Below are positions 1 through 16,821 of a stretch of 16,821 bases of DNA, piece by piece. This DNA comes from a virus (Duplodnaviria; Heunggongvirae; Uroviricota; Caudoviricetes): IMG/VR virus record IMGVR_UViG_2671180758_000023; one strand, written 5' to 3'. The notes beneath the pieces are model-generated. The model was not told the origin of the DNA and searched no databases. It worked only from the letters and a program-made list of their open reading frames with translations. The translations under genes and the position numbers were made by a program. The stretch's first letter is position 1. Each line of letters starts with the position of its first letter.

Positions 1-1461
1 ATGAAAAAATTACTGCGTCTTTTTTTCCCGCTCTCACTGCGGGTACGTTTTCTGTTGGCAACGGCTGCGGTAGTACTGGTGCTTTCGCTTGCCTACGGAA
101 TGGTCGCGCTGATCGGTTATAGCGTCAGTTTCGATAAAACTACGTTTCGGCTGTTACGTGGCGAGAGCAATCTGTTCTATACCCTTGCGAAGTGGGAAAA
201 CAATAAGTTGCATGTCGAGTTACCCGAAAATATCGACAAGCAAAGCCCCACCATGACGCTAATTTATGATGAGAACGGGCAGCTTTTATGGGCGCAACGT
301 GACGTGCCCTGGCTGATGAAGATGATCCAGCCTGACTGGCTGAAATCGAATGGTTTTCATGAAATTGAAGCGGATGTTAACGATACCAGCCTCTTGCTGA
401 GTGGAGATCATTCGATACAGCAACAGTTGCAGGAAGTGCGGGAAGATGATGACGACGCGGAGATGACCCACTCGGTGGCAGTAAACGTCTACCCGGCAAC
501 ATCGCGGATGCCAAAATTAACCATTGTGGTGGTGGATACCATTCCGGTGGAGCTAAAAAGTTCCTATATGGTCTGGAGCTGGTTTATCTATGTGCTCTCA
601 GCCAATCTGCTGTTAGTGATCCCGCTGCTGTGGGTCGCCGCCTGGTGGAGTTTACGCCCCATCGAAGCCCTGGCAAAAGAAGTCCGCGAACTGGAAGAAC
701 ATAACCGCGAATTGCTCAATCCAGCCACAACGCGAGAACTGACCAGTCTGGTACGAAACCTGAACCGATTGTTAAAAAGTGAACGCGAACGTTACGACAA
801 ATACCGTACGACGCTCACCGACCTGACCCATAGTCTGAAAACGCCACTGGCGGTGCTGCAAAGTACGCTGCGTTCTCTGCGTAGTGAAAAGATGAGCGTC
901 AGTGATGCTGAGCCGGTAATGCTGGAGCAAATCAGCCGCATTTCACAGCAAATTGGCTACTACCTGCATCGTGCCAGTATGCGCGGCGGGACATTGCTCA
1001 GCCGCGAGCTGCATCCGGTCGCCCCACTGCTGGACAATCTCACCTCAGCGCTGAACAAAGTGTATCAACGCAAAGGGGTCAATATCTCTCTCGATATTTC
1101 GCCAGAGATCAGCTTTGTCGGTGAGCAGAACGATTTTGTCGAGGTGATGGGCAACGTGCTGGATAATGCCTGTAAATATTGCCTCGAGTTTGTCGAAATT
1201 TCTGCAAGGCAAACCGACGAGCATCTCTATATTGTGGTCGAGGATGATGGCCCCGGTATTCCATTAAGCAAGCGAGAGGTCATTTTCGACCGTGGTCAAC
1301 GGGTTGATACTTTACGCCCTGGGCAAGGTGTAGGGCTGGCGGTAGCCCGCGAAATCACCGAGCAATATGAGGGTAAAATCGTCGCCGGAGAGAGCATGCT
1401 GGGCGGTGCGCGGATGGAGGTGATTTTTGGTCGCCAGCATTCTGCGCCGAAAGATGAATAA
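1..1461 (+). CDS. phoQ: Sensor histidine kinase PhoQ (complete, 486 aa)
   Basis: Full-length ORF starting at window base 1. Two N-terminal TM segments, acidic periplasmic patch (EDDDDAEM), HAMP, H-box ([10 protein letters not shown]) and HATPase motifs ([16 protein letters not shown]). Matches E. coli PhoQ as I recall it. Stop TAA at 1459-1461. Confidence 0.95.
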
Positions 1462-1970
1462 ATATGTCCTTTTATCACCACAGCAAGGCAACCCATTGAT
1501 TTAATTAAACAACTCACACTGCAAAAAGTGCTAAAAACAGCAAATTGACTACACCATTAACTACACCGTTCGGTGCACTGTATGAAACAACGTGGAACAA
1601 ATAGACACAAGAAATATACAGGCGGGTAATCTTTCCAGGGGGATGCGCACCAATTCATGAGGGGCGTTAATGTCGATATGGGGATCCCCATAACGGGGCT
1701 ACCGGATTTTTTTCCGGTTAACTGTTAATCAGGCTGGTGGGTTTTACCTGTTCGGTAGGTGTTATGATTATCGTAATACTTTTCCCCCAATGGGGTAAAA
1801 GCATCAACCGTAACGGAAGTCGTTATGGTTGCCTTGATGATCTGCGTGGTCATTATGACCATTCAGTCAATGACCTTAATCAGAGCTTTTCGCTAAAAAT
1901 GACGTTGGCCACGTCATCCGGAAAGCACAAAATCCCATCGATTTTTAATTAACGGTTAAACCGTCTTTTT

Positions 1971-2010
1971 GTCACGTCGTGTCACTGGTTGTCACTCTCC
2001 GTCACGATCT
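1971..2010. repeat. Four direct GTCAC repeats at exact 10-bp phasing (gtcacgtcgt gtcactggtt gtcactctcc gtcacgatct)
   Basis: Read directly in the sequence. Preceded by a small hairpin plus T-run (acggttaaaccgtcttttt). Helical-phase spacing suggests a protein-binding array (arm-type or Xis/Cox-like sites); function unproven. Confidence 0.55.
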
Positions 2011-2033
2011 CCGATAGCCTGGCTGCAAATTAA

Positions 2034-2052
2034 ACTACGAAAATTTCGTAGT
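2034..2052. promoter_or_regulatory. 19-bp perfect palindrome actacgaaaatttcgtagt (operator or terminator-like hairpin) downstream of the PerC-like gene
   Basis: 9-1-9 perfect dyad read directly. About 45 nt 3' of the minus-strand ORF ending at 2098. Followed on the minus strand by a moderately U-rich tract (ttaatttgc). Confidence 0.35.
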
Positions 2053-2097
2053 TCTGGCTTCTTTCAGATAGTCGGTTGCCTGGTTACACGAAAAAAA

Positions 2098-2406
2098 TTA
2101 CTTCCTGCGTTTATCCCGCTTTGTATGTCCGTGCTGAATGCCCCGCAGTGGATCTTCTTTTTTCAGGTCGATCCCCATGTCCGTTAGTGTTTTTGTGGCG
2201 GCGGTTCTTATGGCACAAATCAGGTCTCTTTCCGGTTCCCGGGTTATGGTTGCCTTCCGGATACATGCCGTTCGTCGTTCCGTTACATACTGACGCGCTT
2301 CATCACTTGCCGCCTGTTTCAGTAACTCACCCCAGCGATTAGCCGCCCGTCGCCATAAGCCTTTCGCTTCCAGTTCTTCCGCTTTGTCATCATGCACCAT
2401 AAGCAT
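2098..2406 (-). CDS. PerC-family transcriptional activator-like protein (about 100 aa; start at 2406 or 2400)
   Basis: Motif MVHDDKAEELEAKGLWRRAANRWGELL and C-terminal MGID motif, as in PerC/Pch-family proteins. Paralogous to the ORF at 9833-10105. Weak RBS. Confidence 0.55.
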   Translation of the reverse strand: MLMVHDDKAEELEAKGLWRRAANRWGELLKQAASDEARQYVTERRTACIRKATITREPERDLICAIRTAATKTLTDMGIDLKKEDPLRGIQHGHTKRDKRRK

Positions 2407-2452: not shown

Positions 2453-2484
2453 TTGATAATTTTCCGTATAGCTTATTGTATGAC
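2453..2484 (+). promoter_or_regulatory. Candidate sigma70 promoter for the plus-strand cargo gene (TTGATA -35, about 17 bp spacer, weak -10)
   Basis: TTGATA at 2453-2458 followed about 17 bp later by TTGTAT/TATGAC, upstream of the AAGGAG RBS at 2501-2506. Pattern match only. Confidence 0.25.
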
Positions 2485-2514
2485 AGTACTGTCCCACAAT
2501 AAGGAGTTGCACGC

Positions 2515-2805
2515 ATGAGAATGACCAGACACAAAAAACAGATCCTTGAACTCTACAAACCTGAGTATCGCGATTGGGTGCGGGTGGAGGCTGGAGATCC
2601 ACCTTTTGATGTTCGTGGTGTTACAGTGCTGCTCTATGGTTCCGAATATCAGCGATATCACATAGAGGCAACACGAAGGACGCTAAACGCTATGGTTCGT
2701 GATAAGTTGCTGGAGCGTGTGAAAGTCCGTGAGCCACGTTTTGATGTGCGTATTGGTGGCGATGGTGCGCATTGCACGGTAATCCGCTATGGCCTGGTAA
2801 GGTAA
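2515..2805 (+). CDS. Hypothetical small protein (96 aa) with an internal tandem repeat; convergent cargo gene
   Basis: Strong RBS AAGGAG 8 nt before ATG 2515. Internal duplication PPFDVRGVTVLLYG / PRFDVRIGGDGAHCTVIRYG. Own hairpin plus T-run terminator downstream. Opposite strand to the rest of the element. No family recognised. Confidence 0.6.
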   Translation: MRMTRHKKQILELYKPEYRDWVRVEAGDPPFDVRGVTVLLYGSEYQRYHIEATRRTLNAMVRDKLLERVKVREPRFDVRIGGDGAHCTVIRYGLVR

Positions 2806-2907: not shown

Positions 2908-3189
2908 TTACCGCCGTAACCGCTCCGGCTTCTTCCAGTGGTACGTGATTTTCTCCTTCTCCCGATACATCTCCACGCGGCGACGGTATGCCAGCAACTC
3001 AAGGACTCTGGTTCGTATATTGCGCATATCCGCATCGTTAAGTTCAATACCATCACGGCGCATCACCTCAGCAACAACACGCGCATAATTTTCGGCGGTC
3101 ACGCTGTCCGGCTGCGTGGCCTGTTCGTCATGCTGCTGGCTGATTCCAGAGACGCGGCGGATTAATCGCAGTATTTCGGCTTCTGTCAT
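2908..3189 (-). CDS. Hypothetical protein (93 aa) immediately downstream of the large terminase
   Basis: ATG at 3189 with GAGGT about 9 nt upstream. 13 nt after the TerL stop. Charged, helical-looking sequence. No family recognised. Confidence 0.5.
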   Translation of the reverse strand: MTEAEILRLIRRVSGISQQHDEQATQPDSVTAENYARVVAEVMRRDGIELNDADMRNIRTRVLELLAYRRRVEMYREKEKITYHWKKPERLRR

Positions 3190-4864: not shown

Positions 4865-5204
4865 GCTCGTCCTCTTCTTCTGTTTCCGGTGGATTTTTAC
4901 GGCGGCTTATCGGGTCAAAACCGAGCAAAGAGGCCATTTTTATCATCACTCTTTCAGCGTCGGATTTTGCGCTTAATGCGGGGTTTCTGCTCTCTCCGCC
5001 CTGACTGTTAACAATGCTGAACCCGCGCGCCGCAAGGTCTGCGACGGCTTTCCGGTATATCGAGTAATTGACGCAATACAGTTCCAGATTACTCCAGTCG
5101 GCGGGAGTCAGGTCACCCCGTTCCGCAAGCTGCCGCGATTTTTCCCGCCACTGCTTCACGGCGATATCATCCAGGTAGGCGGGGGCTTTCGGTGGTCTTG
5201 CCAT
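4848..5204 (-). CDS. Terminase small subunit, P27 family (118 aa)
   Basis: MARPPKAP...LELYCVNYSIYRKAVADLAARG pattern typical of P27-family TerS. Position immediately 5' of TerL. Weak RBS. Confidence 0.8.
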   Translation of the reverse strand: MARPPKAPAYLDDIAVKQWREKSRQLAERGDLTPADWSNLELYCVNYSIYRKAVADLAARGFSIVNSQGGESRNPALSAKSDAERVMIKMASLLGFDPISRRKNPPETEEEDELDRLE

Positions 5205-5494
5205 GCTTATTTTTTCGCCAGATTATTTTTCAAAAAATTCCCGTGCATAAAAATTTGAGGAGGCGTTCGGTGCCCGGCGGGGTCGGGTTTGTCCTGAAAA
5301 CGCCCCCCCACCCCGTCATACAGCCTCATCAGCGATTGCGGAAACATTCCATAACCTCGCGGTCACGGTCGGTTAATCGCTTCGCTGTGATGCGTTCTGC
5401 GCGTCCTGACGCTTTATCTTTATGCCCTGTTTCCTGTGTCTTCCATGCGTCACGCTGCCTTATAAGTCCACGGATAAGGCGGTTTTGTTCCCGC
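5205..5494. other. HNH-terS intergenic region; candidate cos/packaging site (G-rich tract tgcccggcggggtcggg at about 5271-5287)
   Basis: 290-bp non-coding gap in an otherwise tightly coupled operon, between an HNH endonuclease and a P27-family TerS, which is the arrangement of cos-type HK97-like phages. The G-rich tract is only loosely similar to lambda cosN (GGGCGGCGACCT). Confidence 0.3.
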
Positions 5495-5935
5495 TCATTC
5501 ATCAGCGTCATACATCCAGTTATTGCGGTTAGCGGCCCGTTCTTCCTCCTCACGGAATCCGCCAGCGGCACGCTTGCTTTTTGTTGCCGGATCAAGCCAC
5601 TTCGTTTTCTGGTTATGACACGCCTGGCACAATGGCTGATGGTTCCATTCGGGCCAGAAGAGAACATCATCACCGCCATTAATCGGGATAATGTGATCCA
5701 CCACCACGGCGGGCGTATATATCCCCTTCTCAAGGCATCGCACGCATAACGGGTTTTTACTCAGATACATGGCGCGGTATTTGTCCCACTGTCTGGAGTA
5801 CCCACGCGCGCGGCGGTGTCCTCGTCTGGCATCCTCTGCACGCCATGCCGCCCGCCTGTGCTCCTCACACTTGCCGGACTTCACGCGCCTGTTACAGCCT
5901 GGTTCTGTGCATCGTCTTAATGGTTGCCACGGCAT
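5495..5935 (-). CDS. HNH endonuclease (146 aa), terminase-associated
   Basis: Cys-rich zinc-finger-like N-terminus (CTEPGCNRRVKSGKCEEH, CVRC) and HNH core (DHIIPINGG...NHQPLCQACHNQK). Start overlaps the connector stop (TGATG). Confidence 0.85.
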   Translation of the reverse strand: MPWQPLRRCTEPGCNRRVKSGKCEEHRRAAWRAEDARRGHRRARGYSRQWDKYRAMYLSKNPLCVRCLEKGIYTPAVVVDHIIPINGGDDVLFWPEWNHQPLCQACHNQKTKWLDPATKSKRAAGGFREEEERAANRNNWMYDADE

Positions 5936-8387: not shown

Positions 8388-9545
8388 TTAATCGTCGTCC
8401 TGTGGCAGTTCCAGAATCTTGATCGCGTTCGAATCCACCACGCCACCGCCTAAATATTTCTGCGTGAAAATTTTGATGAAGCCCGGCTCTGTGAGGTTGT
8501 CCGGTCTGGTGCGAACACCTGTTTCGTGATCAACAATGTAGTAACCGCGTTTGAAGTCACCCAGGGCAATAACGTTATCAGGCATAAACTCCAGATATTC
8601 GACCGGAAGGCCCAGCAACGTATCAGGATCACCCGCCTGTAAACGGTCGCGCCAGATGTAATCACCGTTCGCGTTCTTCACCTTCTGAAGTTTTGCCGCC
8701 GTCGTGGAGTTAACCACCCAGACCGCGTTTTTGCGGTATTTTTTACGTAATGCAAATTTCAGGTCGATCAGCGGGTCCGCAGATGTCCACGCCAGAGATT
8801 CGGAAGGTTTAATTACCTGCAACGTACCAAAATCACGCTCTTTGTCGTTCTTCTCTGCACGGGGTACGGATAAAAAACCTTTTGCTTTTTTGTCACCGTC
8901 GCCCACAACCAGATCGCTTTCTTCGGTTTCCGTGAAGGTGTCGCCAATCTCACCCGTCAGCCATGAAAGGATGTCCACATCGGAAAAATCCACGATTTCC
9001 TGTGTGGTGCGCGGGTACGCATAGACCGGATACAGCTTAATGCTCACCTCGTTAATCTGCGGGGTGCTGGTCTGTTCGCGTGTCTTACCCTCTTCACCGT
9101 GGTTAACGGTCGCACCGCCAGCGGAAACAAGCTGCTTAAACTCGTTGCTGCTGATTTTCTTCACGGTACAGATGCGGCGCATGGTGGATTCATCCGTCAG
9201 CATTCGCATGATTTCGGTGTTCAGTTCGGGGATAACGGTATAACCACCATCAGCGGGAACGCCTGTACTTAATGCGCGGGTTTCACCTGTCAGAATGTAG
9301 TTGCGTAGTTCTGCGGGGTCAGTGGTCTGGCTGCTTTTACCTGGCTTGCTGCGCTCTTCGTCTGCAATGGCTTCAAGGCGGGAAATGTCTTTATCGAGGG
9401 ATTCAGCTTTAGCGCGTAATTCGTCAAATTTTGCGCCCTCAGCATCGTTAAGACTGCGGTTTTCTTTTTCCGCGTTCTCCAGCATGTCGCGCATCTGATT
9501 TTTAATGGCGGTTTTCTGCTGGCGTAATTCGATTATTCTCGGCAT
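8388..9545 (-). CDS. Major capsid protein, HK97 fold (385 aa from ATG 9545; ORF track extends to a GTG at 9593)
   Basis: N-terminal coiled-coil delta/scaffold-like domain (IELRQQKTAIKNQMRDMLENAEKENRSL...) followed by a typical HK97 MCP body. AGGA 8 nt before ATG 9545. Confidence 0.9.
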   Translation of the reverse strand: MPRIIELRQQKTAIKNQMRDMLENAEKENRSLNDAEGAKFDELRAKAESLDKDISRLEAIADEERSKPGKSSQTTDPAELRNYILTGETRALSTGVPADGGYTVIPELNTEIMRMLTDESTMRRICTVKKISSNEFKQLVSAGGATVNHGEEGKTREQTSTPQINEVSIKLYPVYAYPRTTQEIVDFSDVDILSWLTGEIGDTFTETEESDLVVGDGDKKAKGFLSVPRAEKNDKERDFGTLQVIKPSESLAWTSADPLIDLKFALRKKYRKNAVWVVNSTTAAKLQKVKNANGDYIWRDRLQAGDPDTLLGLPVEYLEFMPDNVIALGDFKRGYYIVDHETGVRTRPDNLTEPGFIKIFTQKYLGGGVVDSNAIKILELPQDDD

Positions 9546-9634
9546 AAAAAAAGTCCTGGGGTTAAGTAAGGAACTCCAGGACGCGGCAAACACTCAACCG
9601 TTTTTCATAAGGAAATCAGTAATCGCACCGATCG

Positions 9635-9684
9635 TTTTCCCGCCTGGTAATGAATATTGGCGAGCACATTAACAGGCGGGAAAA
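9635..9684. promoter_or_regulatory. Large imperfect inverted repeat (18-14-18: ttttcccgcctggtaatg ... cattaacaggcgggaaaa) in the capsid-operon leader
   Basis: Read directly; the arms match at 17 of 18 positions. Lies 90-140 nt upstream of the capsid ATG on the transcribed strand. No adjacent U-tract, so more likely an operator or leader structure than a terminator. Confidence 0.4.
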
Positions 9685-9689
9685 TGGCC

Positions 9690-9800
9690 CCAGCGTCCTG
9701 GCACCACGGGCGAGAATAATCATGATTCAGGTCGGGTAAAATATGCCGTTCCGGTCAGCGAGCAACGTGGAACAACCACGAACAAATAATTTACAAAACA
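9690..9800 (-). promoter_or_regulatory. Candidate late (capsid-operon) promoter region containing the 13-bp motif CAACGTGGAACAA (9763-9775) and TTGCTC-N16-TATTTT on the minus strand
   Basis: Only sizeable non-coding gap upstream of the head operon. The motif is repeated at 1588-1600 with conserved flanking ACCGRAACGG. Promoter hexamers are a by-eye match. Confidence 0.35.
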
Positions 9801-9826
9801 TGACAAAAAGCCGGATTGCTCCGGCT
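9801..9826 (-). terminator. Rho-independent terminator after the PerC-like gene (hairpin agccgga-ttgc-tccggct followed by a U-run on the minus strand)
   Basis: 7-bp GC-rich stem with 4-nt loop at 9809-9826. Five A on the plus strand (9805-9809) equal a U-run 3' of the hairpin on the minus strand. 7 nt after the stop at 9833. Confidence 0.6.
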
Positions 9827-9832
9827 GTGTGA

Positions 9833-10105
9833 TTATCTGTCCTGGTAATTTCGCCATATTTCATCGCTTACACCATCTATACCCATTTCAGCATAAGTGC
9901 GATCTACTGCCTTTCTCAGGTCTCCGAAGTTATCCGGCGGCTCCGGTGGCTTCTGTGCCTTCCTGGAACATTCCAGCCGTCGCATCGTAACCTGATGCCG
10001 TTCCTTGTCTGTCTCCACCAGCAGCATGACTTCACCCCATCGCGCCGCCGCCCTCCGGTAAAAGCCTTTCGCCTCGAGTTCTTCCGCTATGCGGTCATGT
10101 ACCAT
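9833..10105 (-). CDS. PerC-family transcriptional activator-like protein (90 aa from ATG 10105; ORF track extends to a GTG at 10225)
   Basis: MVHDRIAEELEAKGFYRRAAARWGEV and C-terminal MGIDGV motif. GAGGGGG RBS 5 nt before ATG 10105. Last gene of the early/replication operon before the terminator. Confidence 0.6.
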   Translation of the reverse strand: MVHDRIAEELEAKGFYRRAAARWGEVMLLVETDKERHQVTMRRLECSRKAQKPPEPPDNFGDLRKAVDRTYAEMGIDGVSDEIWRNYQDR

Positions 10106-10115
10106 CGCCACCCCC

Positions 10116-10526
10116 TCAGAACGGAATACCGTCACCGTAAGGGTCATCGCCTCCCGCTGGTGGCTGATTACCCTGTGTGCCTGTGGTTTTGCGTCTGTTC
10201 CCGCCAGGACGTGCCGCACGGGCACTGATTACGCTGTCTGCAATAACCTGATAACCCTGCCGCGTTTCCCCGTTCTGTCCGGTCCACTGGCTGACCTGCA
10301 TCGTGCCGGATACGCTGGCAACGTCGCCTTTTTGATGTTTAGCCAGGAAGTCGGCCTGCTTACCAAATGCGATGACCGATAGCCATAACGTAGCCTGCCC
10401 ATCCTGCGCCTGACTACATGGCAACGATACCGCCATACGTGCCAGCGTCATTGGTGTGCCCTTGCTGGTCTGTTTTACCTGCGGGTCGTCCACCAGCCGC
10501 CCGTAAGCTGCTATCTGTGCTGTCAT
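10116..10526 (-). CDS. ssb: Single-stranded DNA-binding protein (136 aa)
   Basis: OB-fold-like N-terminal region, Gly/Gln-rich linker and C-terminal acidic tail ending DDPYGDGIPF (SSB DDDIPF-type tip). Strong RBS GGAGAGGTGG. ATGA overlap with the upstream ORF. Confidence 0.8.
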   Translation of the reverse strand: MTAQIAAYGRLVDDPQVKQTSKGTPMTLARMAVSLPCSQAQDGQATLWLSVIAFGKQADFLAKHQKGDVASVSGTMQVSQWTGQNGETRQGYQVIADSVISARAARPGGNRRKTTGTQGNQPPAGGDDPYGDGIPF

Positions 10527-10777: not shown

Positions 10778-10985
10778 CCCACCTCTACCCACTTTTTTCG
10801 CCCACTTTTTACGTTTTCCCACTTCGTCCAACGTGGGAAATTTGGGATTTATATCATCTTGTTTCATAGGTATTTTTTTAGTGCCCACTTTTTGGGATAT
10901 ATACACGTGGGAAAGTGGGTAATTTTGTTAAAATTCCGTTAAATCGCCCACCTTTCCCACTTTTAATGCCCACTTTTTACAGTGG
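10778..10985. repeat. Iteron array (about 10 copies of CCCACTT(TT), both orientations) flanking an AT-rich core; candidate replication origin
   Basis: Copies at 10778, 10788, 10801, 10818, 10884, 10947, 10956 and 10969, with inverted copies at 10833-10838 and 10907-10919. AT-rich spacer at 10838-10883. Immediately 3' of the replication ATPase gene, as in PICI/SaPI origins. Confidence 0.55.
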
Positions 10986-12377
10986 TCCTACATCATCACC
11001 GTCAATGTAGATCACGTCGTCTTTTTCCAGTTTGGCTAACCATCGTTTAAGGTGTTTTGTGTCATACCCCAGCTTTTTCATATCGTCACGTAACAGCGGG
11101 ATCGTGCACTTGTCGCCGTGCTGTGTGCGTGAACGTATGCATCCCCATAGCGCGGTATGGTTTTCCGTCTTGTTCCCTGCCTCCTCGATGCGCTCCAGTT
11201 CAACAGGAGGGCGCGGATCATCCACCACCACCAGCGACGTGATTAATTCACCGTCAGCGTCGGTAAAAAGCTCCACCACGCGTAAGTCATATGCGGCTTC
11301 TTTGAGTTCCTCCGCGTCCTTCATTTTGGTGCATGAGATAACCAGCGCTTCGCTTCCTGCGTCCTCCCTGCGTATCCGGTATTCAGCATCCAGCGAAGCA
11401 CGAAATGCACTGGAACCGCGCGCGCCTTTCGTCTCATCCTTGCCGGAATGGTGAACCACCAGCACCGTGGCCCCTGTGCGTCGTTTCAGTTCGTCACAAC
11501 CACGGATAAACGCCCCCATATCACGGGAATCATTTTCATCATTCCCACCAAAGCAACGCGCCAGCGTATCCAGAATAATCATGCGTACAGGTTTACCCGT
11601 TTCCCGCTCCACCTGACGGGCAGCGATAACCATTTCATCAACATCAAGCGGGGCAGCCGGAAAGATGGGGCGGTTTACCAGATACAGATTTTTCACCTGC
11701 TCATCGTGCACAACCTCCCAGGCTTTTACACGACGCGGAACACCTATACCGCCTTCACCAACCACATAGAGAACCGCACCATGTGCAACCCTGCGGCCTC
11801 CCCACTGGCGACCAGTGGCAACATGGCACGCCCACGATCCGGCAAGGAATGATTTATAGGACCCGCTAGCCCCGTATATGCTGCATAGCGATACCGCCGG
11901 AATAATCCCCTTAACCACGTAATCCAGTTGCGTGTCGTATCCGGTAGATCCAACGCTCATCGGTAGCGTGGTTTTTCGCTGGTGGTTTTTTTCTTCCGCC
12001 GGCTCTTTCCCGCGCACCCGTTCCAGGTATTCGCGCCAGTTCTCCCGCATATGGCTGTGCATCCCTTCGGGGTAATAATTCGCATCAGTTACACCCGCCG
12101 CCGCCAGCTTGTGCGCAATGGCATTAATATTTGATGGCCTGATGTGGCCTGCCTTGTACAGCCGGACACAATAGCGCCCCTCGTCGATGATTCTCAGGTC
12201 TGCCAGTTCATCCAGTTGATCATCAGCCAGCACAACGGGAGGCACATTATCGCCAGCCAGTCGCCCGTCCTGTTCCTGCCACTGTTTCGCATGTGCCCAG
12301 GCATCACTACCCGCAAAAATAATGACTTCGGTCATCTTGTCGTAAGGCTGTTTTTTTAAGTTCGGTGCGCTTTTCAT
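10977..12377 (-). CDS. Replication protein, RecA-fold ATPase (RepA/AAA_25-like helicase, pri-rep analogue), 466 aa
   Basis: Walker A-like YGASGSYKS, Walker B-like VRMIILDTLARCF, and VLVVHHSGKD motif typical of RepA-like helicase ATPases. Unassigned N-terminal domain and a C-terminal winged-helix-like tail. A canonical primase domain is not evident by eye. Confidence 0.8.
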   Translation of the reverse strand: MKSAPNLKKQPYDKMTEVIIFAGSDAWAHAKQWQEQDGRLAGDNVPPVVLADDQLDELADLRIIDEGRYCVRLYKAGHIRPSNINAIAHKLAAAGVTDANYYPEGMHSHMRENWREYLERVRGKEPAEEKNHQRKTTLPMSVGSTGYDTQLDYVVKGIIPAVSLCSIYGASGSYKSFLAGSWACHVATGRQWGGRRVAHGAVLYVVGEGGIGVPRRVKAWEVVHDEQVKNLYLVNRPIFPAAPLDVDEMVIAARQVERETGKPVRMIILDTLARCFGGNDENDSRDMGAFIRGCDELKRRTGATVLVVHHSGKDETKGARGSSAFRASLDAEYRIRREDAGSEALVISCTKMKDAEELKEAAYDLRVVELFTDADGELITSLVVVDDPRPPVELERIEEAGNKTENHTALWGCIRSRTQHGDKCTIPLLRDDMKKLGYDTKHLKRWLAKLEKDDVIYIDGDDVGPL

Positions 12378-13369: not shown

Positions 13370-13571
13370 AAAGCATCCCCTGAATATTCGTGTTAATCAT
13401 TCCGGCACGTTTTGTGATTTCCTGTAATGATTCCCTTGTGGCGACAATTGCTTCATCTGGTAAGTGGTAATTACACACCACGCGACCTTTATCCACATTG
13501 ACCAGTAGCTGCCCTGTGAATTTCTCACGAAACTGAATGCGGTTAAGGTCAGTAAGTGACAGATTAATCAT
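13359..13571 (-). CDS. Hypothetical protein (70 aa)
   Basis: ORF in the coupled operon; overlaps the upstream gene by 8 nt. No family recognised. Confidence 0.5.
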   Translation of the reverse strand: MINLSLTDLNRIQFREKFTGQLLVNVDKGRVVCNYHLPDEAIVATRESLQEITKRAGMINTNIQGMLYAQ

Positions 13572-13767
13572 GGCGCACCTCCTGACGAATACGGGCAGCG
13601 AATACCATCACGCAGCCAGCCGGAGATTGCTGGCGTGCTTCCTGTTCGCTGGTGGCCTCAATGGTAATCACGCGCGGTTGTGCCGTGCTCAGGGCGATAA
13701 AACGCCAGATGTATTTATTCAGGTTGTGCGAGTCCCGCCCTTGCGGGTGTGTGGTATTATTTCTCAT
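13564..13767 (-). CDS. Small protein (67 aa) resembling Icd-like (host cell division inhibitor-like) proteins of P4-family elements
   Basis: GAGG RBS 5 nt before ATG 13767. Motifs YIWRF, IEATSEQEAR and FAARIRQEV recall P4-family Icd-like proteins (from memory, not searched). First gene after the divergent promoter region. Confidence 0.45.
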   Translation of the reverse strand: MRNNTTHPQGRDSHNLNKYIWRFIALSTAQPRVITIEATSEQEARQQSPAGCVMVFAARIRQEVRHD

Positions 13768-13802
13768 AGCTACCTCGATACTCTCGTTATCGTTGGTGGT
13801 TA

Positions 13803-13837
13803 GAAGCCCCGTTACTGCTCCAACAGTGCGGGGCTTC
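13803..13837 (-). ncRNA. Leader stem-loop (gaagccccg ... cggggcttc, 9-bp stem, 17-nt loop) in the 5' UTR of the early operon
   Basis: Dyad read directly. Lies between the predicted minus-strand promoter and the Icd-like start codon. Not followed by a U-run. Confidence 0.3.
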
Positions 13838-13874
13838 GTCGTTTCAATTGCTGAATTGCATGTATCAGCACTTG

Positions 13875-13929
13875 TGGTATTCACATTACATTTAGGTGAA
13901 TACCATTTCAAGTCTTTTTTGGTATTCAC
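13875..13929. promoter_or_regulatory. Operator array in the divergent switch region: three copies of TGGTATTCAC (two form a 10-11-10 palindrome), overlapping back-to-back promoters
   Basis: Copies at 13875-13884, 13896-13905 (inverted) and 13920-13929. Minus-strand promoter candidate TTGAAA (13906-13911), 17-bp spacer, TAATGT (13883-13888) overlaps copies 1 and 2. Plus-strand -10 candidate TATTAC (13935-13940) lies just after copy 3. Confidence 0.45.
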
Positions 13930-13972
13930 TTTTGTATTACACTGCATCCCGTTATTAATGGGAGGTGCAAAC

Positions 13973-14278
13973 ATGTCCAGGAGTTCTGTTAACAATAAGT
14001 CACAGCAACTGAATGCCAGATTTCCACATGAAGTAGTGAGTGGCATTGAGGCATCCCTACAGCCAGGGGAAACTAAAGCGAATTTTATAGTTACGGCTGT
14101 ACGCGGTGAGATCGCCCGGCGCCAGGCAGAAGGAAGTGGAGAAAATCCCCTGGTTTCTTCGCTCGATGCACTGGCGCAGGTGGAAAAACTCGGAATCAAA
14201 GCCGCCGAGGAGATCGGGCAGCTCGTCACTGTCGCACGTGAAGAACTCCAGCGCCGCAAGACCAAAGAACCAGAGTAA
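13973..14278 (+). CDS. Ribbon-helix-helix-like DNA-binding protein (101 aa); candidate repressor/regulator of the switch
   Basis: Strong RBS GGGAGGTG 5 nt before ATG 13973. N-terminal beta-strand-helix-helix pattern (LNARFPHEVVSGIEASL...ANFIVTAVRGEIARRQ). Divergent from the early operon. Followed by a clear intrinsic terminator. Confidence 0.6.
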   Translation: MSRSSVNNKSQQLNARFPHEVVSGIEASLQPGETKANFIVTAVRGEIARRQAEGSGENPLVSSLDALAQVEKLGIKAAEEIGQLVTVAREELQRRKTKEPE

Positions 14279-14335
14279 TCACCATCAGCGCCGTGGTGTA
14301 AGGTATTACGGCGCATTGCTATGCAGGACAACACA

Positions 14336-14509
14336 ATGACCGATAAAGAATTGACCAAAACATTATCACCGGCACGGAAAAGACGGCGCAGAAAGATAGA
14401 GCATGAATCAGAAAGATTCGCGCCATGTGCTTTTGCCCTTGAGCAATTCCTTAAAGAGTACAGGGAAAAGCGCTCATTGCAGGTATGGCAACGAACTGAA
14501 CCAGACTGA
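14336..14509 (+). CDS. Hypothetical small basic protein (57 aa)
   Basis: AGGA 8 nt before ATG 14336. Basic patch RKRRRRK. Same transcription unit as the RHH gene, ending before the terminator at 14589. Confidence 0.4.
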   Translation: MTDKELTKTLSPARKRRRRKIEHESERFAPCAFALEQFLKEYREKRSLQVWQRTEPD

Positions 14510-14588
14510 TTGCATTGCCCACCAGCCGCAAATGTGGCATTGTTGGCAATGCTCATGCGTTGGGGATAACGTGTAGCTTGTGTCGAGG

Positions 14589-14617
14589 GGCCACCGTAGC
14601 GGGTGGCCTTTGTTTTG
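14589..14617 (+). terminator. Rho-independent terminator (ggccacc-gtagcg-ggtggcc followed by TTTGTTTTG)
   Basis: Perfect 7-bp GC-rich stem, 6-nt loop and U-run, about 80 nt after the stop of the plus-strand operon. Confidence 0.7.
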
Positions 14618-14985
14618 CCCGTTATTCGGCAATTGTGGCGCTTCTCCACATGGTTGATATAATCCCACTGCTCAGATTCATTTTTTGCGCAGTAGGTTAA
14701 TTGTTCACAAAGGCGCTCCGGCAACGGGGCGCTTTTTGTTTTTATTAGTTTGTAGAAACCTGACTCAGAGATAATGCTCATATTCTGATTGCCGTCAGGG
14801 GTGTAAGTTAAATTTACTCCCTTTTTATCATCAAACATCTGCAACGCTCTGGCGTTAACAATATTGGTTTCACTCCCGCCAGTAAGGCCGGAAATAACCG
14901 GAATAATTTCGGCAAAATTTTGCAGATTCTGTTTTTCAGGACGAACGAAGCCCCGCCCTTGTTCGGGAGAATATCCAGTATTCAT
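14618..14985 (-). pseudogene. Bro-N-like antirepressor N-terminal domain, probably a gene remnant (no in-frame stop before running antisense through the plus-strand operon)
   Basis: Residues DDKKGVNLTYTPDGNQNMSIISESGFYKLIKTKSAPLPERL align to the Bro-N pattern (DEDEKGV...GG.Q...IISE.GLY.LI..S..P.A..F). Weak RBS. The frame stays open for 473 codons to 13564, but the middle section is Ser/Cys/Arg-rich antisense of a well-supported plus-strand gene. Confidence 0.3.
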
Positions 14986-15037
14986 GGTTAGATCTCTGTA
15001 TTAGTGGATGGGTGGCGGCTGTGTGCCGCCAGCCTGA

Positions 15038-15226
15038 TTAGTGAACTGCCTCGCAGCTGTCCTTCCATGCCAGAACTTCGGATAAAGACCAGCCAACGGA
15101 ACGACCGCCCAGCTTACGCCGTGATGGGAATTGTCCGGCTTTTTCCAGGCGGTACCGACATGAGCGGCTCAGGCCTGTAAGTTGCTGACATTCTTTTTCA
15201 CGTATAAAGCGATCTGTGCTTAACAC
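15038..15226 (-). CDS. alpA: AlpA-family transcriptional regulator / excisionase-like protein (about 62 aa, GTG start)
   Basis: Motif QLTGLSRSCRYRLEKAGQFPSRRKLGGRSVGWSLSEVLAWK matches the AlpA winged-helix pattern. AAGGGGG RBS 4 nt before GTG at 15226. Confidence 0.8.
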   Translation of the reverse strand: MLSTDRFIREKECQQLTGLSRSCRYRLEKAGQFPSRRKLGGRSVGWSLSEVLAWKDSCEAVH

Positions 15227-15256
15227 AATTCCCCCTTTGTTGTTTCTTAAAGAGTC

Positions 15257-15310
15257 ATTGGGTGGATTATTGGGTTGGGTTGTGTCGGATTGTGTCAGGG
15301 TGTTTGTGGA
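15257..15310. repeat. Degenerate direct repeats with about 10-bp period (ttgggtgg, tgggttgggt, tgtgtcggat, tgtgtcaggg, tgtttgtgga) immediately upstream of alpA
   Basis: Read directly. Lies in the alpA 5' region on the transcribed strand. Function unknown. Confidence 0.4.
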
Positions 15311-15510
15311 ATGGCAAACACTGGCGGCGGTCGTTTTACAGAAGCAGGGGGAATGAGAATAAAAACTCTTTTAATTCATTATGATGCAAAGGCATAAAAT
15401 TTTACTTTTACGCCTTTTTTACATATTTTTAAGAGTGATTCGCCAGTGTATAAAAAAACAGTACACCTATAAAAATCAAATGGTTATTACGATGGCTGAT
15501 TTTTAACCCG

Positions 15511-15570
15511 TTGTTCCATTTTGTTCCTTGTTGTTCGTCGTTGTGTCTCGTTGTTTCACGTTGTCCGCAT
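15511..15570. repeat. Six tandem 10-bp-phased repeats (ttgttccatt ttgttccttg ttgttcgtcg ttgtgtctcg ttgtttcacg ttgtccgcat) just 3' of the integrase gene
   Basis: Read directly; every 10-mer starts with TTGT. Exact helical phasing over 60 bp. Shares the GAACAA/CAACG core with the late-promoter motif (reverse complement). Confidence 0.55.
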
Positions 15571-15591
15571 CCTGAAAAATCGCAAAAAAAA

Positions 15592-16821
15592 TTATATTTC
15601 TCTGGCTATTGGCAATGTGGTTACGTTTTCATGTGTTCCCGCCAGTATCCCTAACCGCTCCGTCCACATATCCAGCGCGTCACGTTTCGCATCCAGATAA
15701 CGGGAATGGTTATAGACTCGTTGCATCCCTGGCATCTGATGACCTGTAAGCTGCTCCACGACGTGAGGATCCACGCCTAAATCGTTCAGCATCGTTGTAA
15801 AGGTGCGCCGGATGTCATGCAGTGACCAGTGAGGGTGTTTTAGCCTCCTGTGCGCTAATCTGCCGTACTGCGACACGCTTGTTTCCTGTTTCAATTCCCC
15901 CAGCAATAAGCCCGTGTGCCTGTTCTGCTCCACCAGCTGCGTGACGAACGGCAGTATTGCTTCCGGTATGGGCCGGAATATTGCCACCTTCGTTTTGCTG
16001 TGTTCTTTCGGCACGGTCCAGAGCATTTCGGTAAAATCCCACTCGCTGATCTCCGATAACCTCAGTTCTACCGTCCGGCATCCGAAAACAATCAGGAGGC
16101 GGATTAGTGCGACGTAGTAAGGGGAAAATATTTTTTTGTCCAGTGCCTGCAATAATTCGCCAAGTTCTTTGGTGCTTAAGACACGCTCGCTTATATCCGG
16201 TTTTTTCCCAACGTCCGCCACACTCATATCATCAAGAACGTTGCTGATTGCATAGCGCCGCCTCCGGCAGAACTTAAGCGCCTGTTTGCACGTCTGTAGC
16301 AAGAATCCGGCAGTAACAGGCGTTCGCTTTGCCACCTGGTCAAAACAGGCCAGCCAGTGCCGTAGCTCGCATTTATCCAGCGGCATAGCACCAATGTGCT
16401 GTATTACGTGATTATTAAGGCGCTTTTTCAGGGCGGCATAATCCACGCGGTTTTCCTTTACGTAAGACTCAAGCCAGTAGGTAAGCGCATCGCCAACCGT
16501 TACGGGCTTTAACGCTTTCTGTACGGTGTAATTCATCTCATGACGTGGATTTTTCCCCTCAGCAAGCCAAGCGCGACACTGTGCCGCTTTTTCCCTGGCA
16601 GCTTTCAGACTCAGATCAGGATAATTTCCCAGCTTAATCCGTTCCGGTCGTGCTCCCCTTCCCGTTCCGGCCCTGTAGGTGAAATACCAGGTTAAAAGGC
16701 CGCTGGTTGAATGCCTGACGCTCAGGTTTCCACCGTCATTAAGAAAAGCTGTTTTTTGGGCGGGTGTGCCGTTGATTTTCCTCAGCTGTGTATCGCTCAG
16801 TTTGTTAAGTGCTCTGCTCAT
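15592..16821 (-). CDS. Tyrosine integrase, P4-type (409 aa); start codon at the window edge
   Basis: N-terminal arm-binding-like domain (LSDTQLRKINGTPAQKTAFLNDGGNLSVRHSTSGLLTWYFTYR) and catalytic motifs (HDIRRTF, C-terminal Y in GMQRVYNHSRY). ATG at 16819-16821. Confidence 0.9.
   Translation of the reverse strand: MSRALNKLSDTQLRKINGTPAQKTAFLNDGGNLSVRHSTSGLLTWYFTYRAGTGRGARPERIKLGNYPDLSLKAAREKAAQCRAWLAEGKNPRHEMNYTVQKALKPVTVGDALTYWLESYVKENRVDYAALKKRLNNHVIQHIGAMPLDKCELRHWLACFDQVAKRTPVTAGFLLQTCKQALKFCRRRRYAISNVLDDMSVADVGKKPDISERVLSTKELGELLQALDKKIFSPYYVALIRLLIVFGCRTVELRLSEISEWDFTEMLWTVPKEHSKTKVAIFRPIPEAILPFVTQLVEQNRHTGLLLGELKQETSVSQYGRLAHRRLKHPHWSLHDIRRTFTTMLNDLGVDPHVVEQLTGHQMPGMQRVYNHSRYLDAKRDALDMWTERLGILAGTHENVTTLPIAREI

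Follow-up and report, generated by a model that had tools for sequence, protein, structure and literature searches.

The window analysed here, the whole 16,821-nucleotide stretch of the IMG/VR record IMGVR_UViG_2671180758_000023, consists of phoQ and of a capsid-forming phage-inducible chromosomal island (PICI) that is closely related to EcCIEDL933 and is integrated in the phoQ-roxA interval. A 13-base motif, CAACGTGGAACAA, is present in it as two exact copies on the plus strand, at 1588-1600 (left copy) and at 9763-9775 (right copy). We conclude that both copies very probably belong to phased protein-binding arrays serving the attachment-site (att) and int-alpA module and the capsid control region of this satellite, and that these arrays are unrelated to its two PerC-family genes. 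By elimination and by analogy, the most likely protein to bind the arrays is AlpA, to which we give an even chance. A broader proposal, that the ACAA arrays are the AlpA operator of Gram-negative PICIs and that one 10-bp code couples excision, alpA amplification and the switching on of capsid and packaging genes, is put forward more tentatively, at slightly short of even.

A search with the 13-mer allowing two mismatches returned four further copies, located at 15511-15563 on the minus strand in 10-bp steps, and the longest inverted repeat of the window pairs 1583-1613 with 15528-15558. The unit common to these places is a 10-bp element, xxxACAAxxx, repeated head to tail at one helical turn. 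The ACAA cores are found at offsets 11/21/31 in array A (left copy), 21/31/42/52 in array C (right copy), 21 to 71 by steps of 10 in array D (between int and alpA) and 5/15/25/35/47 in array B, so that each array contains at least three direct head-to-tail repeats 10-11 bp apart. Chains of three or more (A/C)ACAA cores at a spacing of 9-11 bp occur twice in the window compared to a null mean of 0.012, and the sequence CAACGTGRAACAA is present in the four arrays A, B, C and D. A position weight matrix derived from the arrays gave scores of 30.4 and 24.7 to the arrays of two satellites on which it was not trained (L006 and L007), for a null maximum of 10.3 +/- 3.1. Longer identities were also observed between arrays of different elements: the int-alpA array of L012 has 23 consecutive nucleotides, CAACGTGGAACAACCACGAACAA, in common with array C of the window, and the distal arm of L094 shares 17 nucleotides with the conserved block of array C (block C). 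The 13-mer is counted as real because it is embedded in arrays of strict 10-bp phasing and, judged from the sequence, it is the best-matching stretch of one family of arrays.

The left copy is located in an arm of the attachment site. In strain LD67-1, the empty site reads phoQ-TAAATATGTCC-atacttc-roxA, which gives AAATATGTCC as the core of the attachment site at the left boundary of the satellite; a second copy of the core lies outside the window, 171 bp beyond the ATG of int (23047-23056 in L001, the O157 locus; L008 and L009 designate the loci of CFT073 and of the O145 classical satellite, respectively). The window, the O157 element, EcCICFT073 and the O145 satellite share the int-distal arm at an identity of 97% or more, and similarity collapses past the right limit of this arm. 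Within this arm, array A (GAAACAACGT GGAACAAATA GACACAAGAA), which is unchanged in L001, L008 and L009, follows a pair of ACTACACC repeats of 12-bp period. The identical 20-mer pair is present in the other arm, 26 bp from the int ATG (L001 22902-22921), and in both arms the order is the same: the pair, then 16 bp, then an ACAA array. With the core defined by the empty site and the arrays 16 bp from the pairs, arrays A and B are thus inside att and beside the putative sites of the integrase. Elements at four chromosomal sites with different cores (phoQ-roxA, abgR, a Mg-chelatase-like gene and tqsA) have all retained the int-proximal arm, including the pair and the array. In L094, a satellite at cspD-clpS whose Int and AlpA are 78% and 58% identical, both arms carry the pair and three TTGTTCG at a 10-bp period. 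The sequence of the 12-bp pair varies with the integrase, being GCAATACAC in L006, GTGATACACC in L007, TCTATACAC in L091, CGTATAAC in L092 and TAGGCCCA before intA of CP4-57; because it changes with integrase type, the ACTACACC pairs are read as candidate integrase arm-type sites. The alpA/intA region of CP4-57 in K-12, taken as a test case, has the 12-bp pair near intA but lacks ACAA arrays; given the strong divergence of its AlpA, this case is not informative.

The right copy looks like a part of the control region of the capsid and packaging operon, as far as sequence comparison indicates. The core of array C, 9768-9798, is invariant in every capsid-forming satellite examined. A distant search with 9540-9840 identified loci in which only 55-60 bp match; these are exactly the array, placed before capsid genes, in satellites that have no PerC and whose integrases are 42-47% identical to that of the window. 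The sequence TTTTGTAAATTATTTGTTCGTGGTTGTTCC was identical in 5 of 5 aligned sequences with diverging flanks, and block C was also invariant in E. coli genomes in which the flanks could not otherwise be aligned. A 17-mer from block C gave 75 matches in the viral contigs of IMG/VR, of which 8 were set aside as chance matches. In the ~67 satellites left, block C is separated from the capsid start by 177-222 bp, and the gene upstream of it encodes PerC, an unrelated 82-aa protein, both or neither. An exact-pattern scan for block C with one genome per species gave a single Shigella match, uninformative owing to the dereplication. Directly upstream of array C, perC1 is followed by an intrinsic terminator, and most relatives have at this position a hairpin and T-run of another sequence. 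Scans for sigma-70 promoters reported none at either 13-mer. Reading of the alignment nevertheless suggests a weak promoter for the capsid operon, TTTACC-16-TATTCT, which matches 8 of the 12 consensus positions, is located 22 bp beyond the motif and scores too low for the promoter scan to report it; TTTACA-16-TATGTT occupies the corresponding place in the second lineage.

Other features of this region were examined. A cos or terminase recognition site was considered for block C and dropped: the adjacency of the HNH and terS genes puts cos elsewhere, presumably near 5205-5330 by analogy with HK97-type phages, and the motif is also present in the att arms. The capsid leader contains an 18-bp inverted repeat (9635-9684, 94% complementary, 14-nt spacer); consensus folding of this leader from two lineages suffered from poor alignment and gave no convincing conserved structure. 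Where the capsid-forming satellites have block C, those of CFT073 and O145 (L008 10261-10514; L009 10676-10926) carry a near-consensus promoter, TTGCTC-16-TATAAT, and a perfect palindrome, ATAACTGGATG.ACATCCAGTTAT; from this arrangement their late operon seems to be controlled by a repressor.

The remaining arrays surround alpA. Its product is assigned by PHROG to 'excisionase and transcriptional regulator' and matches PDB 8c3t, a member of the AlpA family; the element thus encodes a small winged-helix protein of the excisionase/regulator type. The stretch from the 3' end of int to alpA (15030-15600) is 99.8% identical to that of EcCICFT073, and the phasing and ACAA cores of array D are retained in relatives that are only ~75% identical over the whole int-alpA stretch. 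A single sigma-70-like promoter, TTGCCA-17-CACAAT, is predicted before alpA and overlaps two GACACAA units (array E); diverged relatives retain TTGCCA as well as the ACAA units. Relative to predicted promoters, array D lies upstream of that of alpA and array E over it, and array C lies upstream of the weak candidate for the capsid operon; these positions would fit arrays at regulated promoters. Between array D and alpA there is a conserved hairpin, AAAGGCGTAAAA...TTTTATGCCTTT (~15388-15418, minus strand), and in the L006-type satellite a clear intrinsic terminator stands directly before alpA (L006 18590-18640, minus strand); helper-dependent antitermination of alpA is a possibility. The P. aeruginosa antiterminator also called 'AlpA', which acts with a GGGACG element, was discarded as a guide: it is Q-like, has at least 142 residues and is unrelated to the 62-aa PF05930 protein, the shared name being a coincidence.

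Genetic data are available for two AlpA proteins of this kind. AlpA of EcCICFT073 activates its own promoter and downstream genes, and over-expressing it is by itself sufficient for excision and replication, with no response of a Pint fusion; transcription of alpA depends on a helper function (PMC6092414). In EcCIEDL933, mutation of alpA abolishes induction (bioRxiv 10.1101/2022.09.08.507074). The placement of the arrays in both att arms, before alpA and before the capsid operon fits these phenotypes, and for this reason the arrays are proposed to be AlpA sites. In the mechanism that we infer, AlpA would polymerise on the ACAA arrays while Int would occupy the ACTACACC pairs. At arrays A and B, AlpA would bend the arms and act in excision as directionality factor; through array D and the GACACAA units that overlap the alpA promoter, it would control its own expression; at array C, about -57 to -100 relative to the weak conserved capsid-to-terL promoter, it would switch on the capsid and packaging genes.

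Several observations weigh against this assignment. Firstly, block C is invariant while the identity of AlpA ranges from 48% to 100%, which implies that the AlpA alleles have all kept one specificity or that array C is read by another factor. Secondly, L006 and L007 have block C and are devoid of strong arrays in the att arms or upstream of alpA. Thirdly, EcCICFT073 has the same AlpA and no block C; C therefore travels with the capsid module and not with alpA. Moreover, array D is inverted compared to array C relative to the downstream gene and is located ~190-250 bp from the predicted alpA promoter. Finally, the arm sites P'1-P'3 of lambda Int are likewise tandem 10-bp arrays, and Int may for this reason bind arrays A and B.

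This last point leads to an alternative in which the ACAA arrays as a whole are arm-type sites of the integrase, of the lambda P'1-P'3 type, the ACTACACC pairs being bound by another factor such as AlpA and the copies at alpA and at the capsid genes being either Int-mediated or fortuitous. Tandem arm-type sites are known for lambda Int, and only elements with an integrase of this family (78%-100% identity) have arrays A and B, in their att arms. However, when six integrases are compared, it is the 12-bp pair and not the array that changes by type while keeping its place beside the start of int. In addition, block C stays invariant in the satellites with the distant integrases described above, whose arm pairs differ; arrays C and D are not accompanied by a pair; and no role of Int at capsid promoters is known. 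We regard this alternative as unlikely.

Block C, and perhaps array D, might also be read by a factor that is not encoded by the satellite, either a protein of the helper phage or a host regulator of the OmpR/PhoB type, which binds direct repeats of 10-11 bp. The units are similar in form to the decameric tor boxes and to PhoP boxes, and block C is constant while the types of AlpA, Int and Rep vary. A helper factor would couple both capsid production and the induction of alpA to the helper; the transcription of alpA requires a helper function (PMC6092414). The distribution of the motif argues in another direction, as it is present in both att arms and moves with the int-alpA module to four sites, which points to an element-encoded cofactor of recombination; arrays A, B and D are missing in satellites with other int-alpA modules, and AlpA alone, without helper, induces the identical module (PMC6092414). 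An outside factor appears quite unlikely on these grounds.

The initial annotation had attributed the motif to the PerC genes: each PerC would activate a late promoter of which the 13-mer is the mark, and the left copy would be a degenerate duplicate, a relic of a tandem or ancestral satellite, or a promoter that drives int once the element is circular and reads antisense into phoQ while it is integrated. A number of its observations hold. Both small genes are of the PerC family, with proteins 47% identical; perC2 scores 81.7 bits (positions 1-82 of the 90 of the PF06069 profile) and perC1 152.3 bits (1-89 of 90) for a cut-off of 22.6. The two exact 13-mers are in the same orientation, the stretch from the left copy to the end of the element is free of genes, and this copy faces att; after excision its minus strand points over att to int. 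The right copy is indeed situated before the capsid operon and immediately behind the perC1 terminator, and its reading as a late-operon control element is supported, except for the dependence on PerC. A distance of a few hundred bp downstream of PerC applies to perC2 (498 bp from the stop codon) and not to perC1 (58 bp). The flank ACCGRAACGG, described as conserved with the motif, is separated from the left copy by 13 nt and from the right copy by 7 nt; it is not conserved in relatives, which have CCGATCGTT in the CFT073 arm and CAGGATCGG, GCGGATCGG or TTCTGGCTG in other capsid-upstream regions; the CCG of the left flank is part of the ACTACACCG arm repeat. Given its lack of conservation and unequal spacing, the flank was ruled out as a component of the motif.

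The comparison of satellites separates the motif from PerC. The left motif is identical in the O157, EcCICFT073 and O145 satellites, in all of which perC2 is missing. Conversely, the cassette formed by perC2 and orf96 (~2060-2873) was found in 48 of the 5,426 E. coli genomes, carried by three satellite backbones or more, and is not present in the O157 element; on two other backbones it is associated with other arm sequences and no ACAA motif, and the motif is lacking even in L092, which is homologous to the window over the 400 bp downstream of perC2. Three near full-length satellites with the AlpA type of the window have array D and block C and no PerC-like open reading frame (ORF); the CFT073 and O145 satellites have PerC at the same position and a completely different late control region. 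The motif therefore does not co-occur with PerC. A promoter role of the left copy fares no better: the sigma-70 scan gave no promoter-like site around it, and at the offset of the right copy's promoter the left copy has TGTAGT of the integrase arm pair at the -35 position and no -10, so that no promoter core stands at a fixed distance from both copies. Alignment of 1462-2500 with 9594-10230 by blastn gave the 13-mer, a 74-bp match of 77% at the 5' coding ends of the PerC genes and nothing else, an outcome close to the one that the initial annotation had itself named as refuting it, the 13-mer being the sole similarity. A relic of a tandem or ancestral satellite copy is not consistent with the lack of collinear similarity beyond the motif or with the position of the left copy in an arm conserved at 97% or more. 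In published work, satellite PerC genes are treated as accessory or virulence genes; one of them silences LEE1 and the EcCIEDL933 and EcCICFT073 homologues are without effect on LEE1 fusions (PMC11773190). Combined, these comparisons largely refute activation through PerC, which retains very little probability; the early interpretation was reasonable for the right copy and mostly fails for the left copy and for PerC. Comparison of the genomes places the PerC genes outside the array circuit, and perC2 is, on the same basis, cargo in an accessory slot beside att. As for antisense transcription of phoQ, the sequence neither predicts nor excludes it, and the left motif gives no reason to expect it.

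Two further features accompany the cassette. The 32-bp palindrome CTTATTGTATGACAGTACTGTCCCACAATAAG between the divergent perC2 and orf96 is probably the operator of the accessory cassette; a related TTATTGT...ACAATAA sequence is present in the left-end region of L007 (~5090-5125). No match to Pfam or PHROG was obtained for orf96. Between the arm and perC2, a small hairpin with a T-run (1952-1964, plus strand) is followed by four GTCAC at an exact 10-bp period (1971-2005), a layout that recalls, in the opposite direction, the terminator followed by an array at block C; it is kept in the O157 element and in L092 and is missing in the CFT073 and O145 satellites.

It is extremely unlikely that the arrays are iterons of a replication origin bound by the Rep protein of the satellite, as with the alpha protein of P4. 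Direct repeats are typical of origins, and the type I iteron of P4, TGTTCACC, resembles the unit TGTTCCAC. However, the repeats stay the same when the replication initiator changes: arrays A, B and D do not differ between the element with a primase-family Rep (CFT073) and those with a RepA-family helicase (window, O157, O145), and block C is found with RepA, DUF927 and primase-type proteins. A better candidate for the origin is provided by 3-4 copies of GCCCACTTTTT(AC) at ~84-bp spacing, located just downstream of the RepA helicase gene (10788-10980). Finally, the window contains 12 exact direct repeats of at least 13 nt for 2.3 expected under a first-order Markov model, and 91% of the randomisations contain one or more, so that the exact repeat alone is not significant and lone short exact repeats in this window are not to be read as signals; a chance match of two 13-mers without common function has next to no probability, given that both copies are in phased arrays, that both are conserved in diverged relatives and that longer identities tie the arm, alpA-upstream and capsid-upstream arrays in other elements.

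Features of the window and of the adjacent att arm (positions in the window unless stated otherwise; a dot indicates no strand)
Feature	Position	Strand	Remarks
phoQ	1-1461		stop codon 1459-1461
Attachment-site core AAATATGTCC	1460-1469	.	left boundary of the satellite, overlapping the phoQ stop
Int-distal att arm (P' arm)	1460 to ~1750	.	conserved block of ~290 bp
Pair of ACTACACC repeats, 12-bp period	1548-1567	+	candidate integrase arm-type sites
Array A	1584-1613	+	three units, 16 bp after the pair; includes the left 13-mer
perC2	2098-2406	-	PF06069, E 4.6e-23; on a movable accessory cassette
32-bp palindrome	2472-2503	.	between divergent perC2 and orf96; candidate cassette operator
orf96, cassette partner gene	2515-2805	+	hypothetical protein, beside perC2 in other genomes
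93-aa gene	2908-3189	-	
Capsid gene, then protease, portal, connectors, HNH, TerS, TerL	capsid ~8388-9545	-	capsid ATG at 9545
Candidate weak capsid-operon promoter	9740-9713	-	TTTACC-16-TATTCT
Array C	9759-9808	+	four units 10-11 bp apart; includes the right 13-mer
Intrinsic terminator after perC1	9809-9826	-	directly upstream of array C
perC1	9833-10105	-	PF06069, E 4.5e-45
SSB	10116-10526	-	
RepA-type helicase	10977-12377	-	
alpA	15038-15226	-	62 aa; Phage_AlpA PF05930, E 3e-18; candidate binder
Array E and predicted alpA promoter	15279-15317	-	promoter overlaps two GACACAA units (15279-15296)
Array D	15508-15567	-	six units, 10-bp period; between int stop and alpA; inverted relative to A and C
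Tyrosine integrase (int)	15592-16821	-	second arm (pair and array B) and second core copy beyond the window end
Array B	L001 22938-22977		4-5 units; int-proximal arm, just outside the window; same layout as A (pair, 16 bp, array)

The island extends over ~15.6 kb to the right of phoQ with its major genes all on the minus strand. It is also present at phoQ-roxA in O157:H7 and related strains (90% coverage, 96.6% identity), its gene content and synteny are those of the O157 element, and the Int and AlpA proteins of the O157 copy are 99.8% and 98.4% identical to those of the window. It carries int, alpA, rep, its own capsid-to-TerL set and its own att within ~15 kb and is devoid of tail and lysis genes, as capsid-forming PICIs are. 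The O157 element type has been published as EcCIEDL933, the prototype of this class (bioRxiv 10.1101/2022.09.08.507074). Integration regenerates the phoQ stop codon (1459-1469 region), and the coding sequence of phoQ is therefore left intact by the island. An intact 473-aa ORF is present at 13564-14985 on the minus strand; its C-terminus matches the PHROG 'transcriptional repressor' and aligns with genes annotated as Icd-like in relatives, its N-terminus weakly matches Ant-like anti-repressors, and the same stretch is annotated in related genomes as pseudogene fragments and small genes on both strands. A search of the whole window with Rfam gave zero matches. Among the relatives, the capsid-forming satellite of L006 sits within the large-terminase gene of a prophage (5280-5790 and 20076-20245); such a helper-embedded arrangement has been reported for an integrase clade (PMC10111431).

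Attachment arms with sites for integrase and excisionase, and excisionases that double as regulators, are well known; the arrays have not been described before in these satellites. Genetics designates AlpA as their master switch, and the arrays would be its missing cis-element: the literature on these satellites, as far as covered, contains neither an AlpA binding site nor a control element of the capsid operon, and gives no account of how AlpA promotes excision without raised int expression. If the AlpA operator proposal is correct, the invariance of block C would make capsid modules exchangeable between satellites with different integrases, all AlpA alleles reading one code. The combination of an arm-site pair and a phased ACAA array beside int is a signature that could help to annotate the boundaries and regulatory regions of satellites. 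A role as activators of late genes should not be taken for granted for the PerC paralogs of satellites.

With regard to known systems, both PerC genes match the PerC/Pch family profile over nearly all of its length and show no tie to the motif; the related satellite genes that were tested silenced LEE1 or left it unaffected (PMC11773190). The attachment site resembles that of lambda in having a short core (10 bp) and long arms (~170 and ~290 bp) with repeated protein sites, and differs from it in that an identical module of pair and array is directly repeated in both arms; as the int gene abuts one arm, the int promoter must lie in that arm. CP4-57 IntA, a member of the same family as the satellite integrase, likewise has such a 12-bp pair near its start. 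The published autoactivation, excision and replication, and alpA-mutant phenotypes of the EcCICFT073 and EcCIEDL933 systems fit arrays at alpA and in the arms. The closest parallel in layout is provided by Apl of 186, Cox of P2 and HP1 and Vis of P4, dual-function directionality factors whose binding sites, at att as well as at promoters, are direct repeats with a spacing of 10-11 bp; small winged-helix factors of this type bind cooperatively, head to tail, on repeats spaced by one turn and bend DNA, and the att and pR-pL arrays of Apl comprise five and seven repeats, respectively (PMC7498355). Similarly, the satellite has an array in att beside candidate integrase arm sites, further arrays at predicted promoters and a small winged-helix protein, with 3-5 units per arm and six before alpA. 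In contrast to the Apl, Cox and Vis systems, the arrays that AlpA would bind are found in both arms rather than one, and AlpA (PF05930) is a sequence family distinct from Apl and Cox. Furthermore, whereas Apl and Cox mainly repress, the effect proposed for AlpA at the capsid operon and at alpA is activation.

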